Positions 26,871-33,072 of a DNA stretch of 33,072 bases are shown here, one piece after another. The position numbers and the translations under genes are program-made. Source of the DNA: Pseudomonadota bacterium. Lineage in GTDB: Bacteria; Myxococcota_A; UBA796; CAJQPC01. The notes under the pieces were generated by a model. It saw only the letters and a program-made list of their open reading frames with translations, did no database searches and had not been told where the DNA came from. Location of the stretch: the NCBI GenBank assembly GCA_041160755.1, contig JBEAVX010000691.1, positions 1-33,072 on the forward strand. Reading direction: 5' to 3'. Each line of letters opens with the position of its first letter. Positions within the stretch are counted from its first letter, which is position 1.

Positions 26871-28100
<1,230 letters not shown>

Positions 28101-28170
28101 TTGAGGAGACCTCCAGACTAGGGCCTGACTGACGCCAAGCCGCGCTGATCTTGTTGGGACGAGATTGAAA

Positions 28171-28245
28171 TGGAGCCGATGATGGGATTTGAACCCATGA
28201 CCTCCTCCTTACCAAGGAGGTGCTCTGCCCCTGAGCTACATCGGC
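28171..28245 (-). tRNA. tRNA-Thr (anticodon GGU), CCA encoded
   Basis: Manual fold: acceptor GCCGATG/CATCGGC, D arm GCTC..GAGC, anticodon arm CCTCC-TTGGTAA-GGAGG, T arm ATGGG-TTCAAAT-CCCAT, then T-CCA. Confidence 0.9.
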
Positions 28246-28254
28246 ATTGAAGAG

Positions 28255-28327
28255 AGCGGGAAACGGGGTTCGAACCCGCGACCCTCAGCTTGGAAGGCTG
28301 ATGCTCTACCAACTGAGCTATTCCCGC
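28255..28327 (-). tRNA. tRNA-Gly (anticodon UCC), CCA not encoded
   Basis: Manual fold: acceptor GCGGGAA/TTCCCGC, anticodon arm TCAGC-CTTCCAA-GCTGA, T arm GCGGG-TTCGAAC-CCCGT. The 3' trailer is CTCTTCAAT, 9 nt before the next tRNA. Confidence 0.9.
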
Positions 28328-28336
28328 GCATCACTT

Positions 28337-28374
28337 CTCTCCTGCCGTGCGCGTTGCGGCGCACGACAGGAGAG
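28337..28374 (-). other. Long hairpin in the tRNA-Tyr/tRNA-Gly spacer (candidate processing site)
   Basis: CTCTCCTGCCGTGCGC (28337-28352) pairs with GCGCACGACAGGAGAG (28359-28374): a 16-position stem with one non-Watson-Crick position (a G-U wobble or an A-C mismatch, depending on the transcribed strand) and a 6-nt loop. Confidence 0.5.
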
Positions 28375-28387
28375 CAGGATGGGTAGA

Positions 28388-28474
28388 TGGTGGGGAGTGC
28401 TGGATTCGAACCAACGTAGGCGTGAAGCCGGCAGGTTTACAGCCTGCTCCCTTTGGCCACTCGGGCAACTCCCC
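28388..28474 (-). tRNA. tRNA-Tyr (anticodon GUA), class II with a long variable arm, CCA encoded
   Basis: Manual fold: acceptor GGGGAGT/ACTCCCC, anticodon arm GCAGG-CTGTAAA-CCTGC, long variable arm, T loop TTCGAAT, then A-CCA. Confidence 0.9.
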
Positions 28475-28506
28475 AGAACTTGACATGCTTGAAAGAACGA
28501 CGTCGG

Positions 28507-28582
28507 TGGAGCTGGTGGTGGGAGTCGAACCCGCGACCTGCGGTTTACAAGACCGCTGCTCTACCAACTGAGCTACACCAGC
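28507..28582 (-). tRNA. tRNA-Thr (anticodon UGU), CCA encoded
   Basis: Manual fold: acceptor GCTGGTG/CACCAGC, D arm GCTC-AGTTGGTA-GAGC, anticodon arm GCGGT-CTTGTAA-ACCGC, T arm GCGGG-TTCGACT-CCCAC (one C-A mismatch), then T-CCA. Confidence 0.88.
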
Positions 28583-28640
28583 GTTGCCACCGCGTCAGCG
28601 GGTGCACCGACGAGCACAACCGTCTGGCGAAGTGGCCGCG

Positions 28641-28669
28641 AACATAGTCTCGCGTGCTCGGAGTGTCAA
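28641..28669 (-). promoter_or_regulatory. Sigma70-type promoter of the tRNA-tuf operon
   Basis: Minus strand: TTGACA (28664-28669), exactly 17 nt, TATGTT (28641-28646), followed by the GC-rich discriminator CGCGGCC. It lies about 60 nt upstream of the first tRNA. A small GGCGG/CCGCC hairpin sits just upstream, after the preceding gene's stop. Confidence 0.65.
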
Positions 28670-28688
28670 GGCGGTCGCGCCGCCGGGA

Positions 28689-29789
28689 TCACTTTGCCGG
28701 GGCGGCGGGCAGGGTGAAGGCGTCGGCCGCGATCGTGGCGGGGAGGGACATGGAGCGCACCTCAAGCCGCTCCACGAGGGTGCCTTCGCGGGTGACCTGG
28801 ACCCGCATCGGCACGACGACGCCCGCGCTGACCTCGGACCAATCGGAGTACTCGTAGAGGAGCACCCCGGCGCTGGTCGTGAAGATCACCTGCCTCGGAC
28901 GCCAGTCTTTGCTGGAGACGGCGAGCCGCAGGCCGGGCACCGCGCTCCCCTCCCCCTCGGGCTTGGACTCAAGGATCACACAGGGCTCACCGTTCACCCG
29001 CTCCTCGCCGACGAGCTGGAGCGCGACGTGGGAAGGATCGGTGTCTACGAGGCTCACGAAGCGCAGCGGGTAGCTCAAGAGGCCCTCGGGGGCGTACTCG
29101 GCCATGACCTCGCGGGTGCGCTCCACGTCTCGGGGGCTGACCTTGCCGTCGATGAGCACCGACGCCGCGGCCCCGTCGATCACCGTGGTGGACGAGGACG
29201 CGGGGCCACCCTTGACCACGACGTCGAGCCTCACCCGCGCGCCATCGCGGAGGAAGACGTGCTCGGCGACGATGGGCTGGCCCTGGTGCGGGACCTCTCG
29301 CACGTACTCAAAACGCACGCTGGGGGACTTGTGGAGCGCGGCCACCCCGCCATCCACGCCGCCGAGGGCCTCGCTGACATCGTCGAGGATCTTCTTCACC
29401 GGATCGTCACCGACCTGCGCGGGGGCGCCGGGCGTGGGCTCAAGGATCCTTGGGCTGCCCGGCGCCGTGCGCACGCTCACCGCGGCCTTGCCTTGTTGGC
29501 GATAGAGCGTGACGTCGAGGTGGGAGAGGTTCGCCAGCTTCGCGGCGTCCACCCCGGCGGTGACCTCGGACTCGTACCCCTCGGCGATGAGCAGGTAACA
29601 CCAGCCCTGACCGCCGACGTAGCGGCGCACGACGCGGGTGTTGAGCTCGGAGGACCGCGCCAAGGCGTCGGCCTCGGCCAGCTCGGACTTCTGCTTGGAG
29701 GGGGCGGTCTCCAGGTAGAACGAGACGTCCTCCTCGGCGGCGAAGGCGCTGAGGCTTACGCGAAGCAGCAGCAGCAGAGGGCTGATCAT
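28689..29789 (-). CDS. Secreted hypothetical protein, C-terminal half LolA/RseB-like (inferred)
   Basis: Signal peptide MISPLLLLLRVSLSAFA|AEED. The beta-rich C-terminal half ends in a YEYSDW..V.AGVVVP pattern reminiscent of LolA-like lipoprotein-sorting/RseB-type folds. Its ATG overlaps the M50 gene stop (ATGA, 29786-29789). Confidence 0.6.
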   Translation of the reverse strand: MISPLLLLLRVSLSAFAAEEDVSFYLETAPSKQKSELAEADALARSSELNTRVVRRYVGGQGWCYLLIAEGYESEVTAGVDAAKLANLSHLDVTLYRQQGKAAVSVRTAPGSPRILEPTPGAPAQVGDDPVKKILDDVSEALGGVDGGVAALHKSPSVRFEYVREVPHQGQPIVAEHVFLRDGARVRLDVVVKGGPASSSTTVIDGAAASVLIDGKVSPRDVERTREVMAEYAPEGLLSYPLRFVSLVDTDPSHVALQLVGEERVNGEPCVILESKPEGEGSAVPGLRLAVSSKDWRPRQVIFTTSAGVLLYEYSDWSEVSAGVVVPMRVQVTREGTLVERLEVRSMSLPATIAADAFTLPAAPAK

Positions 29790-30796
29790 CGGGTCTCCGC
29801 AGGTGGGGGTGCCGGAAGGCTATCCATCTCAACCGGGCGCGGCATGAAGGTCAAGAAGAAGACGAGGGCCGCCAAGATCCCGATGACCTTGGCCCGGAGA
29901 GAGAGCGGCGGGGTCTGCGGCGGGGAGATGCCGCGCCAGGCGCCGGTCAGGGCGAGGAGCAAGCCCCAGAACAGCCATCCCGACCACAAGATTCCGCCGA
30001 GCACGGCGAGGCCCAAGAGCAGGCTGGAGCGGCGGCGCTCGCCCTGGGGCCAGAGGGCGGTGAGGATGTGCCCGCCGTCGAGCTGGCCGATGGGCACGAG
30101 GTTGATGCCGGTGAGCAGGCAGCCGACCCAGCCGGCCATGGCGACGGGGCTCAAGACGGCGAGGCGATCCGGGGGCGCGCCGAGGAGCAGGCCGCCGAGG
30201 AGGTCCATGATGAGGGGGTTCGCGAAGATGAGCACCGGGGCCTCGCCGTCGGGGACAGGCGGGCTCAGCCAGTCGCTTATGGCCTGGAGCCGAGGGGAGG
30301 CCGCCAAGAGCGGCGTGAGCCAGGGCTCCCAGAACGACGGCTCCGGCGGGCTGAGCTGCAGGGCCTCGGGCGGGCGTGTGGACGGCAGGCCCACGGCGAG
30401 GGCCAAAAACGAGAGCGCCGCCCCGGCGAGGGGCCCCGCCGCGCCCATCTCCAGGAGGCCGTCGCGGTCGCGGGGCTCCGAGCGCAGCTCGATGATCGCG
30501 CCGAAGGTGCCAAACGCCGCCGGGAACGGGATGAACTGGGGCAGGCTCAGGGCGAAGCCGTGGCGGCGGGCGACGACGTAGTGGCCGAGCTCATGGGCGA
30601 GGAGGATCGCCATGAGCGTGACGGCGAAGGACGCGGCGCCGAGGACGGCCTCGCGGTCGCCGAGGCCCTCGCCACCCCAGAAGCCGCCGTAGGTCAAGAA
30701 GACCGAGAGGCTGGTGGCGACGAAGAGGCCGACGCTCCACCCAATCTCCGACGGACTGGGGCCGCTGGGCGCCGCCGCTTCACCGACCTCAGCCAA
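29786..30796 (-). CDS. Site-2 protease family (peptidase M50) intramembrane metalloprotease
   Basis: HELGHY (HExxH) within a TM segment, plus the second motif NLVPIGQLDGGHIL (NxxPxxxLDG), in a polytopic membrane protein. TTG start with GGAGGAGG 4 nt upstream. Confidence 0.85.
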   Translation of the reverse strand: MAEVGEAAAPSGPSPSEIGWSVGLFVATSLSVFLTYGGFWGGEGLGDREAVLGAASFAVTLMAILLAHELGHYVVARRHGFALSLPQFIPFPAAFGTFGAIIELRSEPRDRDGLLEMGAAGPLAGAALSFLALAVGLPSTRPPEALQLSPPEPSFWEPWLTPLLAASPRLQAISDWLSPPVPDGEAPVLIFANPLIMDLLGGLLLGAPPDRLAVLSPVAMAGWVGCLLTGINLVPIGQLDGGHILTALWPQGERRRSSLLLGLAVLGGILWSGWLFWGLLLALTGAWRGISPPQTPPLSLRAKVIGILAALVFFLTFMPRPVEMDSLPAPPPAETR

Positions 30797-30839
30797 GGAT
30801 CCTCCTCCGTCTCAGGCGGTCGGAGGCTCCGCGCGCCGC

Positions 30840-33072
30840 TCAGTTGAGCTGCTTGAAGGTCAGCTCGTACTCGCCTGTGTCGCCGCCGCCAGAGACGACG
30901 ATGGTGTACTTGCTACCGCCAACCACCGTCGCCGTCAACACGGCCTCTTCGCCGGTCTTGCCGCTGCGGCCGCCGAAGTTGTAGATGACCGACGCGGTCG
31001 GGTCCTCGTCCTCGTCGATCTCGTCGAGGTCGAAGCCGTCCGAGGTCAAGAAGCCGCTCCCCAAGGTGCCGCCGTTGTTGGTGCACTGCTGCACCCAGAC
31101 CTGCTCTTGAAACGACGTGGGCTTGGGCTCGCTGTTGTCTACGACGCCGTCCTGGTCCCAGTCGTCGGTGCAGGCGCCCGCCGTGGCGTAGCCGCCGCAG
31201 GGGTCGAAGTCCGACGAGGTGGCCAGGGCCGTCGAGCTCAAGAAGAGCTGGTAGTAGAGGTAGTCCAGCACCAGGTTGGGGTACTCCCACTCCTCTTCGC
31301 CGCCGTCGCAGGCCGTCGAGACGGTGTCGGTGACCGTGGGCTGGGGCAGATCGTCGCTCTCGACGATGGCCATCCAGGGGTCTTCAGGGGTGGAGTCGCC
31401 GGAGGTGGACGAGAAGCGGCGGTCGAGCCACACCGCGATCTGGATGACCTCCCCCTTGGTGCGATCGGTGAGGTCGAGCTGGAAGCGGTCGAGGTCCTCC
31501 ACCGTCTCGGCGGACTCTTCGCCCGCGTCGGTGAGCACGCGGGTCGTCGCCGGGGTGGAGATGTCGCCGATGGCGTAGATCGGGCTGCCGTCTGCGGGGA
31601 GGGACGGCAGGTAGACCAGGTTGGAGTCGAGCGGCGAGTAGATGCGGTCTACGGCGGTGTCGTCGAAGGAGGGATCACGCCAGCGGATCACGGTGCCGTA
31701 GAAGCTCGCGCTGGTGTCTTCGAGCTCGACGATGGTGGCGCTGTACTGGATCTTGGTCAGGCGGCTGATGTGGGCGCCGTAGCCCCCGGCGGCGTAGCCG
31801 TAGTACTCGGAGCCCGTGACGTAGGTGTGGTGATCGAGGCCGTCGGCGACGATGCGCTGGTCGGTGTTCTCCTCGGGGACGTCCGTGGTGCCGCCCTCCA
31901 TCCAGCGGTTCGTGCCGCGCACGTTGAAGCCGGTCTGGTAGCCGTTGGCGCCGTAGTAGATGCCGATGGTGGGCTCGTCGGGGGCGACGGTGGGCGCGGA
32001 GATCGCCGTGGCCTCGGCGAACGGAGGCCACTCCTCGGGATCGACCAGGGGCTCTCCGGCGCTGTTCGTGACCCCGGTGGTGAGGAGCGCGACCTGCCAC
32101 TGGAGCACGAGGGTGTCGAAGCTCTCGCCGGTGGCGGCCTCGATGTTCGCCGTGCCGATCTCCGTGGTGTTCGTCAGCGACGTGAGGAGGTCGGTGCCGT
32201 AGGTGTCGATGAGCCAGCGCGCGAAGAGGTACTGCGCGCCGCGGGAGCCCGTCGCGAAGAGAGACGAGCTGTCGTAGTCGGTGAGGCCCTCTAGGTAGGG
32301 GGCGTCCATGTAGTTCCAGGCGTCCTCGTAGTACACCGCGCCGAAGCCGCAGATGTCCGTGGCCAAGGCGCCGAGCGCCTCGGTGAGCCAGGACTCCTCT
32401 TCTTCCCCTTCGCTGGCGATGACGTGGGTGTTGTAGAGCACGAGGCGGAGGTAAGACCGCGCGATCTCGGCGGTCAGCTCCATCGTCGTGTACTCGTCCA
32501 CCGTCGTCGTCTTGTAGGGGTTGTAGAAGCCGTAGGGGTCGGGGGCGAAGACGTAGATGATCTCTTGCTCGTCCGAGGACGGGTTCGTCTTGTCGTCGAA
32601 GGTCGAGAGATCGGACTCGGGGTCGGCGTAAGAGAAGACCTTGGACCAGTCGTCCTCGTCATCAGAGGTGAGCGGCAAGGTGTTGAGCACGGGGCTCACG
32701 AGCACGGTGATCTTGCCGTCCTCGTTGATGTCCGAGGGCTCGCCGAAGAGGTGATCGACGTTGACGATGATGTTGTTGTCGACGATGTCGGCGACGGTCT
32801 GGAGGTCGCAGTTGGTGAAGCCGTAGCTGTCGTAGACCGCGTAGCTGTCGACCACACCGTCACACTCGTAGTCCCAGTCGATCGGCACCTCGTCATCGAC
32901 GTAGATGGCGATCTTGCTGCCGAGCGCCCACAGGGTGGCGGTGATCGACGACACGCTCTTCGCCGAGCTGTAGTCGTCGCGCACGCGGAACTCGGTGGTC
33001 TTCGTGCCGATGTCGTCTTCGCTCACCGCCGGGGCGGGCAAGGGCTGGGCCAAGGGGCGGCGGAGCTTGGGC
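30840..33072 (-). CDS. Large acidic secreted protein, 5' end outside the window; M30 (hyicolysin)-like region lacking HExxH, C-terminal PPC-like domain
   Basis: The frame is open to the window edge, and the TTG at 33053 is only the ORF-caller start. No signal peptide is visible, which is consistent with truncation. Features: Ca-binding-type loops DINEDGKIT and DDWDQDGVVDNSE, an ESWLTEALG motif, and a C-terminal beta-rich GSKYTIVVSGGGDTGEYELTFK segment typical of pre-peptidase C-terminal domains. Confidence 0.7.
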   Translation of the reverse strand, partial: PKLRRPLAQPLPAPAVSEDDIGTKTTEFRVRDDYSSAKSVSSITATLWALGSKIAIYVDDEVPIDWDYECDGVVDSYAVYDSYGFTNCDLQTVADIVDNNIIVNVDHLFGEPSDINEDGKITVLVSPVLNTLPLTSDDEDDWSKVFSYADPESDLSTFDDKTNPSSDEQEIIYVFAPDPYGFYNPYKTTTVDEYTTMELTAEIARSYLRLVLYNTHVIASEGEEEESWLTEALGALATDICGFGAVYYEDAWNYMDAPYLEGLTDYDSSSLFATGSRGAQYLFARWLIDTYGTDLLTSLTNTTEIGTANIEAATGESFDTLVLQWQVALLTTGVTNSAGEPLVDPEEWPPFAEATAISAPTVAPDEPTIGIYYGANGYQTGFNVRGTNRWMEGGTTDVPEENTDQRIVADGLDHHTYVTGSEYYGYAAGGYGAHISRLTKIQYSATIVELEDTSASFYGTVIRWRDPSFDDTAVDRIYSPLDSNLVYLPSLPADGSPIYAIGDISTPATTRVLTDAGEESAETVEDLDRFQLDLTDRTKGEVIQIAVWLDRRFSSTSGDSTPEDPWMAIVESDDLPQPTVTDTVSTACDGGEEEWEYPNLVLDYLYYQLFLSSTALATSSDFDPCGGYATAGACTDDWDQDGVVDNSEPKPTSFQEQVWVQQCTNNGGTLGSGFLTSDGFDLDEIDEDEDPTASVIYNFGGRSGKTGEEAVLTATVVGGSKYTIVVSGGGDTGEYELTFKQLN

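Follow-up and report, generated by a model that had tools for sequence, protein, structure and literature searches.

The stretch of DNA analysed here (the window, 33,072 nucleotides) is the entire contig JBEAVX010000691.1 of a fragmented metagenome-assembled genome (MAG; 914 contigs, assembly 90% complete). The listing of its open reading frames contains three minus-strand, co-directional and tightly packed frames, which we designate genes A, B and C. Gene A encodes a lipoprotein with an M30-like peptidase fold whose catalytic site is lost, gene B an M50 site-2 protease (S2P), and gene C an exported protein in which a SPOR-like domain precedes a LolA-superfamily barrel. We tentatively favour the view that the cluster is an envelope module specific to one uncultured class of Myxococcota, working by the mechanism proposed in the last section, in which A and C form an old and stable core pair and B is an accessory that was inserted later and is dispensable. 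In the genus of the window the trio is predicted from its sequence to be a three-gene operon.

The order of the genes was followed in 41 related genomes from seven families of one order and in 80 loci of other species, the frames in related loci being chosen by the GC content of third codon positions (GC3). Handles beginning with G, L, P and C denote genomes, loci, proteins and contigs, respectively. A, B and C were collinear and adjacent in about 27 of the 41 genomes. The 80 loci comprised 52 with the order A-B-C, 17 with A directly followed by C, 8 cut by contig ends and 3 that truly lacked C, and gene C was found downstream of A in 69 of the 72 informative loci, which span many genera. The A-B-C arrangement is not due to chance, and the trio that a preliminary description of this DNA had singled out as a module recurs across genomes. 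On a tree of A, the loss of B requires at least three events, all within one clade of largely freshwater lineages; after each of them A and C stand directly adjacent, with nothing called between them. Whatever lies upstream, C always adjoins a block of tRNA genes and tuf. The C of G031 was visible only with a profile of the C family.

The predicted products of A, C and B

A is built of a pseudopeptidase domain of M30-like fold, beta-sandwich domains, an acidic region rich in Cys and, at its C-terminus, a domain resembling PPC and collagen-binding domains. Only its 3' part lies in the window; the missing 5' end was located on a second contig of this genome, at the contig's end (C267:9438-9788), where the N-terminus reads MSKATHMKYLAPSVLFLLALGVGC-RGGDD. 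P0001, a full-length orthologue of the same genus with 98% identity, has a signal peptide and a lipobox followed by an acidic low-complexity linker. Lipobox-like motifs are present in most orthologues, and conservation of the lipobox cysteine reaches at least 90%; by these motifs A is predicted to be an acylated bacterial lipoprotein. The protein is very acidic, with an isoelectric point of about 4.1, and the invariant Cys, Asp and Asn residues of its family fit an exported protein stabilised by metal or disulfides.

Domain models gave little access to A. The window protein matched nothing in Pfam (to E<=1) or NCBIfam, and a Pfam scan of 46 A orthologues gave no convincing peptidase family, no Peptidase_M30 and no PPC. 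A database search returned 156 relatives, all 'hypothetical' and from uncultured Myxococcota-like genomes, with lengths of about 730-1050 aa among the best 120 of the 156. The fold was more informative: the AlphaFold2 model of the full-length orthologue, built on an alignment of 46 sequences, reached a mean predicted local distance difference test (pLDDT) score of 86.5 and a predicted template modelling (pTM) score of 0.84. Its best Foldseek match in the PDB was lugdulysin (7bb8_A, E=7.4e-13, probability 1.00, template modelling (TM) score 0.64 normalised to the target), and the C-terminal domain resembled the collagen-binding domain of ColG (5iku, E=4.5e-3; 1nqd, TM score 0.72 on the target). 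Lugdulysin is also matched by the A family profile at the sequence level (E=2.5e-4). A second bridge is P0219, a lipoprotein of about 550 aa bearing the motif HEFQH, which shares 30% identity with A across 358 residues (E=6e-30) and matches lugdulysin with E=9e-11. Of three features that the preliminary description had read from the letters of A, the M30-like character and the marked acidity are borne out, and for a PPC-type domain there is a fold match but no Pfam PPC match.

The peptidase site itself is degenerate. In the profile alignment, H241, E242 and H245 of lugdulysin align with R, S and R of the sequence RSYLR in A, and the pairwise alignment with P0219 agrees. Across 46 sequences of the A family these columns are occupied by R/Q..., S/G/A... 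and K/R/H/Q..., respectively, and are not conserved. The third zinc ligand, the glutamate of WLNEAL, is present as WLTEAL in the window, and the family column (E17/Q9/D7/K3...) shows no ligand constraint. No HExxH was seen on inspection anywhere in the translation of A in the window. Because RSYLR sits on the HExxH positions and the zinc-ligand and catalytic-Glu columns vary across the family, we regard A as a predicted pseudopeptidase on an M30-like fold, in which both zinc-binding histidines and the catalytic glutamate have been lost; having lost its catalytic site, A would therefore be a binding subunit and not an enzyme. The A loci, 96 in species-representative genomes that are all uncultured and Myxococcota-like, define an uncatalogued family of pseudo-M30 lipoproteins of about 900 aa for which Pfam and NCBIfam have no model.

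An exhaustive search with the A profile reached 2625 relatives at E<=0.001, of which 1155 at E<=1e-10. Many of the matches listed are proteins of about 550 aa that cover the M30-like domain. The sequences of P0212, P0219 and P0230 were examined, and all three are lipoproteins with an intact AHEFQH...WLxEALSH; six of the M30-like relatives of about 550 aa were scanned and gave no Pfam match. Judged from their sequences, these HExxH-bearing proteins, which far outnumber the A family, look like a branch of M30-like peptidases that is active and has so far escaped cataloguing.

The AlphaFold2 model of C (pLDDT 91.4) consists of a signal peptide, a domain formed by residues 22-109 and a half-barrel formed by residues 130-350; the N-terminus is the sole hydrophobic segment. 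Three of nine C orthologues tested passed the cut-off of 21 bits for Pfam SPOR (PF05036), with 30.1 bits for L067, 25.1 for L044 and 21.8 for L039, and SPOR matches at E<=0.01 were found in 9 of 39 members of the C family. Sequence and model together suggest that the N-terminal domain of C is a divergent SPOR domain, with predicted binding to peptidoglycan. The half-barrel gave Foldseek matches to NE2245 (3buu, E=1.5e-9) and, at E=1e-9 to 1e-8, to LolA3 and LolB of Porphyromonas gingivalis, to a DUF1329 protein (4z48) and to 3bk5. Matches to MucB and RseB (6jau, 6in9, 2p4b, 2v43, 3m4w) followed at E=4e-7 to 2e-6, ranked below these generic LolA-like proteins. Structure prediction thus upheld the earlier assignment of C as LolA/RseB-like by fold: the barrel belongs to the LolA superfamily, whose matches include the N-domain of RseB/MucB. 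The Pfam scan of C (E<=1) gave no MucB_RseB match, and LolA (PF03548) was not matched either. The model ends with the barrel, so that the small C-terminal domain of RseB is absent and the extra domain is N-terminal.

A separate gene for canonical LolA (PF03548) was found in 40 of the 41 related genomes, and C is for this reason an additional paralogue and not the housekeeping carrier. The idea that C is the only LolA of its genome, raised by the lack of a PF03548 match in the window's genome, was rejected on the same count; the 90%-complete assembly explains that lack most simply by incompleteness. We also rejected a role of B in freeing C from a signal-anchor, as the N-termini of C orthologues are short and end in AxA-type signal-peptidase sites both with and without B. 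A word-indexed protein search with C returned only three near-identical proteins, and orthologues were gathered from neighbouring loci instead. To our knowledge, the SPOR domains of other proteins are joined to membrane anchors, to a lytic transglycosylase or to regions that bind the divisome, and none to a LolA barrel; a full-text literature search found no paper naming LolA-like together with SPOR domain. The predicted fusion of SPOR and LolA folds in C is an uncatalogued combination of known folds.

B is a single-domain Peptidase_M50 protein (PF02163, E=2.4e-21, 76.6 bits against a gathering cut-off of 27.2) with about seven hydrophobic segments by hydropathy, and both S2P motifs are intact, HELGH lying in a hydrophobic segment, in agreement with its first description as an M50 site-2 protease. 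No PDZ domain was matched in the Pfam scan. From its sequence, B is apparently an active, PDZ-less intramembrane protease. Its public name is 'site-2 protease family protein', and the Joint Genome Institute (JGI) labels it 'RseP (regulator of RpoE activity)'; the RseP equivalogs score far below their cut-offs on it (TIGR00054, 17.4 bits against 147.55; NF008046, 16.2 against 477). The genome of the window holds two further M50 genes, one of which, a 586-aa open frame on contig C803, is probably the RseP-type paralogue. Distant B orthologues align in two pieces that skip residues ~140-180 (window 30260-30380), and these residues seem to form an inserted loop, specific to the lineage, that separates the HELGH half from the LDG half.

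History of the locus and alternative readings

Phylum-wide searches recovered full-length C, including both barrel and SPOR domain, from most of the order's genomes; in the sister orders of the class only its barrel was matched, and elsewhere only weak fragments. A orthologues of the sister orders share 30-38% identity, and no B orthologue was found anywhere in the ten sister-order genomes checked. In three sister-order genomes inspected, A is followed by an NFACT (RqcH-like) gene on the opposite strand and then by C and tuf. Since A and C are present in the sister orders, where the ten genomes checked have no B, the neighbourhood of A and C is as old as the class and the arrival of B falls within the order. 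Departure of NFACT from the site then gave rise to the A-B-C operon.

The NFACT/RqcH-like gene between A (or B) and C, on the opposite strand, was seen at L127:4220-5770 (-) and in L126, L128, L117, L026 and L030, that is, in the sister orders and in family f3; the window's own genome has no copy (tblastn, E<=1e-10). Among the distant A-like genes, that of P0140 is followed by an opposite-strand NFACT gene and a C-like gene. Two other candidates were discarded: the 319-aa gene downstream of P0132 is unrelated to C (hhalign probability 0.05%), and the gene downstream of P0180 encodes a glyoxalase.

The sister-order arrangement keeps alive the main rival to a functional module, namely that A, B and C are housekeeping genes of the envelope with no functional relation to one another, held together in a rarely rearranged stretch upstream of tRNA-tuf-secE-nusG, and that the operon formed passively after deletion of NFACT. 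Several observations weigh against our preferred reading, and those on gene order favour this rival. The sister-order A and C, split by the opposite-strand NFACT gene, are separate transcription units whose proximity is not co-transcription and could be inherited synteny beside the very stable tuf region; G040 repeats the pattern with B, followed by opposite-strand NFACT, C and tuf. B-C without A occurs in G022, G028, G040 and L123, C alone in G035, A-B without C in L098 and A alone in L045 and L059; because every pairwise combination occurs, no gene is strictly dependent on another. The upstream flank is variable while C keeps its place beside tuf. As regards the proteins, the SPOR-like domain of the window's C gives no direct Pfam match (E<=1), LolA_like (PF17131) matches C in part, with 23.8 bits (E=4e-5) against a cut-off of 30, and a lipoprotein carrier that shuttles would not be expected to bear a SPOR domain, which tethers to the wall. 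Other observations argue against inherited synteny. C follows A in nearly all informative loci across many genera, the independent deletions of B left A and C directly adjacent instead of drifting apart, the ATGA overlap joins B to C in this genus, and each of the three products is either exported or a membrane protein, which would not be expected of random neighbours. On balance we consider it rather unlikely that synteny alone accounts for the cluster.

A different function for the pair would be dedicated lipoprotein sorting, with C as a LolA paralogue specialised in carrying A, perhaps along with a few other lipoproteins, to the outer membrane, like the extra LolA and LolB paralogues of Bacteroidota. 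C does have a LolA fold and is encoded beside a conserved lipoprotein, canonical LolA exists separately, and LolA paralogues with separate, still-unknown roles are documented (PMC13103446; PMC11885536). This possibility appears doubtful to us, since C persists without A (G022, G028, G035, G040, L123), its SPOR domain would pin it to peptidoglycan, a poor fit to a diffusing carrier, and the annotated neighbours in the cluster include no LolB-like or LolCDE-like partner.

The preliminary description had likened the pairing of an S2P with a LolA/RseB-like protein to the logic of regulated intramembrane proteolysis in RseP/RseB, and had raised the possibility of a substrate or regulator encoded upstream of the window. 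Such a module would have C guarding a membrane-spanning regulator, B cleaving it and A sensing, with sigma and anti-sigma factors encoded elsewhere. It draws on the apparent S2P activity of B predicted from sequence, on the resemblance of the C barrel to the N-domain of RseB/MucB (E ~4e-7) and on the ATGA coupling of B and C in this genus. The upstream genes do not bear it out: the annotated neighbours of the 80 loci include neither a sigma nor an anti-sigma gene, and none was seen in G002 or on contig C267 of the genome to which the window belongs. The A-C pair was kept through at least three losses of B; B moreover arrived late, as its absence from the ten sister-order genomes indicates, and lacks the PDZ domains that gate RseP, while a larger M50 paralogue is encoded elsewhere in the genome. 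The extra domain of C is SPOR-like and not the C-domain of RseB, and C lacks the MucB_RseB signature and matches generic LolA-like proteins better. A is a predicted lipoprotein and not a transmembrane substrate, and being catalytically dead it would therefore be unable to serve as a site-1-type protease. For want of a sigma partner, and given a late, dispensable and PDZ-less B, SPOR in C and a dead lipoprotein in A, the RseP/RseB analogy is unsupported and signalling of this type very improbable.

Layout of the window and flanking genes

The features of the cluster are collected in Table 1. The compact layout recorded earlier is as described, with three co-directional genes separated by the 43-nt spacer between A and B and joined by the ATGA overlap of B and C. 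C had also been placed 20 nt before the promoter of the tRNA-tuf operon; the position of that promoter stands, and the distance is 19 nt past the stop of C. This promoter-like sequence is the sole sigma-70-like site within 28000-31000, and 3' of it lie four tRNA genes (Thr-Tyr-Gly-Thr) followed by tuf.

Table 1. Coordinates of the A-B-C cluster and its features in the window.
Feature	Position	Strand	Remarks
Gene A, 3' part	30840..33071	(-)	743 aa; 5' end cut by contig end; residues ~151-893 of an 893-aa predicted lipoprotein
RSYLR, degenerate HExxH remnant of A	32445..32459	(-)	From translation and alignments with lugdulysin and P0219
A-B spacer	30797..30839	(-)	43 nt; Shine-Dalgarno GGAGGAGGA a few bases 5' of the TTG start of B
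Gene B, M50 site-2 protease	29786..30796	(-)	336 aa; TTG start
HELGH, zinc-binding motif of B	30581..30595	(-)	Intact; residues 68-72
NLVPIGQLDG, second S2P signature (NxxPxxxxDG) of B	30074..30103	(-)	Intact; residues 232-241; aligned to MJ0392 S2P
B stop/C start overlap, ATGA	29786..29789	(-)	Consistent with translational coupling
Gene C, secreted two-domain protein	28689..29789	(-)	366 aa; signal peptide MISPLLLLLRVSLSAFA
Divergent SPOR-like domain of C	29463..29726	(-)	Residues 22-109; predicted beta-alpha-beta-beta-alpha-beta-beta
LolA-superfamily domain of C	28740..29402	(-)	Residues ~130-350; Foldseek
Promoter-like TTGACA-17-TATGTT	28669-28641	(-)	tRNA-tuf operon; 3' boundary of the A-B-C unit

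A is the first gene of the unit. The end of C267 encodes the signal peptide of A, its lipobox LALGVGC and an acidic PDDSG-repeat linker, and C267 and the window contig are neighbours with about 100 nt of repeat-rich linker between them, at which the assembly probably broke. Upstream of A, on C267 and on a contig of the same genus, lie a divergently transcribed ceramidase-like gene and then DnaJ/CbpA; farther upstream these contigs carry genes for an outer-membrane-like protein, HEAT and FHA proteins, 3-hydroxy-3-methylglutaryl-CoA (HMG-CoA) lyase and ornithine carbamoyltransferase. Several other families have co-directional genes for Wzi-like, membrane sulfatase, type I phosphodiesterase and glycosyltransferase family 4 (GT4) proteins upstream of the cluster. 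This Wzi-like/sulfatase/GT4 flank, present in L123 and in the type II loci L057, L058, L074, L076, L077, L080 and L115, hints at a surface-polysaccharide or lipid-modification context.

HEAT-repeat genes also occur close to the cluster: one of about 250 aa stands between B and C in at least 8 loci (for example L056:12963-13709, cluster 19), and another is conserved a few kb upstream of A. The genome of the window carries a second EF-Tu-like gene (C801:1227-2405) with 46% identity to the window's tuf over 396 residues, a far greater divergence than between ordinary tufA/tufB duplicates. Of the MAGs bearing the cluster, many have been given implausible names in the public records (Klebsiella pneumoniae, Enterobacterales, Cognaticolwellia, Alphaproteobacteria), which are taxonomic mislabels.

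A proposed mechanism and comparison with known systems

For the module of A and C with accessory B, we infer the interaction between A and C, their ligands and the substrate of B as follows. C, exported to the periplasm, would be tethered by its SPOR domain to the glycan strands of the cell wall, while its LolA-like cavity would take up a lipid moiety, for which the acylated N-terminus of A is the most plausible candidate. The ligand of A would be a peptide or protein, recognised by the end domain and the dead cleft of the peptidase fold, and A and C would form a non-catalytic complex at the interface between wall and membrane. Where B is present, its target may be not an anti-sigma factor but a membrane-embedded segment that it trims or clears, for instance what remains of the signal peptides of these exported proteins. 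If A and C do cooperate, the cluster would link the recognition of peptidoglycan to the handling of lipids or lipoproteins, and A would be one more of the few dead proteases known to have an organising role in the bacterial envelope. The JGI label 'RseP' on B is a tempting annotation that the present results correct, as no sigma-E-type circuitry lies alongside.

EnvC and NlpD are degenerate LytM-domain pseudo-metallopeptidases that activate cell-wall amidases, and the amidases they activate make the denuded glycans that are read by SPOR domains. A more specific version of the mechanism, which we hold to be a long shot, would follow this logic. A would be an EnvC/NlpD-like adaptor, and C would read denuded septal peptidoglycan while holding a lipid or acyl anchor, the two serving as an outer-membrane tether at the division site or as a switch in cell-wall remodelling, with B providing optional release or clearance. 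The analogy is one of logic only: in both cases an envelope protein or lipoprotein with a metallopeptidase fold has lost its metal ligands and acts, or would act, by binding. The fold of EnvC and NlpD is M23, whereas that of A is M30-like, and no amidase is encoded near A.

Among peptidases, A is closest to lugdulysin and hyicolysin of staphylococci (MEROPS M30; 7bb8), with which it shares the core fold, the WLxEAL helix and an N-terminal beta domain. Unlike lugdulysin, a zinc peptidase of Staphylococcus lugdunensis, A has RSYLR and a third-ligand column that is not conserved, and no zinc site is expected; A is moreover a predicted lipoprotein of a Gram-negative bacterium, about 500 residues longer, with additional beta-sandwich, Cys-rich and PPC-like domains. 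The last of these resembles the calcium-binding collagen-binding domain of ColG. The topology predicted for the N-domain of C, beta-alpha-beta-beta-alpha-beta, fits that of the SPOR proteins FtsN, DamX, DedD and RlpA. The closest folds to its C-terminal domain are found in the LolA superfamily (NE2245, 3buu; PF17131, 3bk5; DUF1329, 4z48; P. gingivalis LolA3, 9tp6), from which C differs by its fusion to an N-terminal SPOR domain; like C, P. gingivalis LolA3 is an extra paralogue beside canonical LolA (PMC13103446). Finally, the RseP-RseB-RseA sigma-E system of Escherichia coli, like MucP-MucB-MucA, also sets an M50 intramembrane protease beside a periplasmic LolA-fold protein. In contrast to that system, the present cluster has no sigma or anti-sigma gene, its protease lacks PDZ domains and is dispensable, and its LolA-fold protein carries a SPOR-like domain in the absence of the RseB C-domain.

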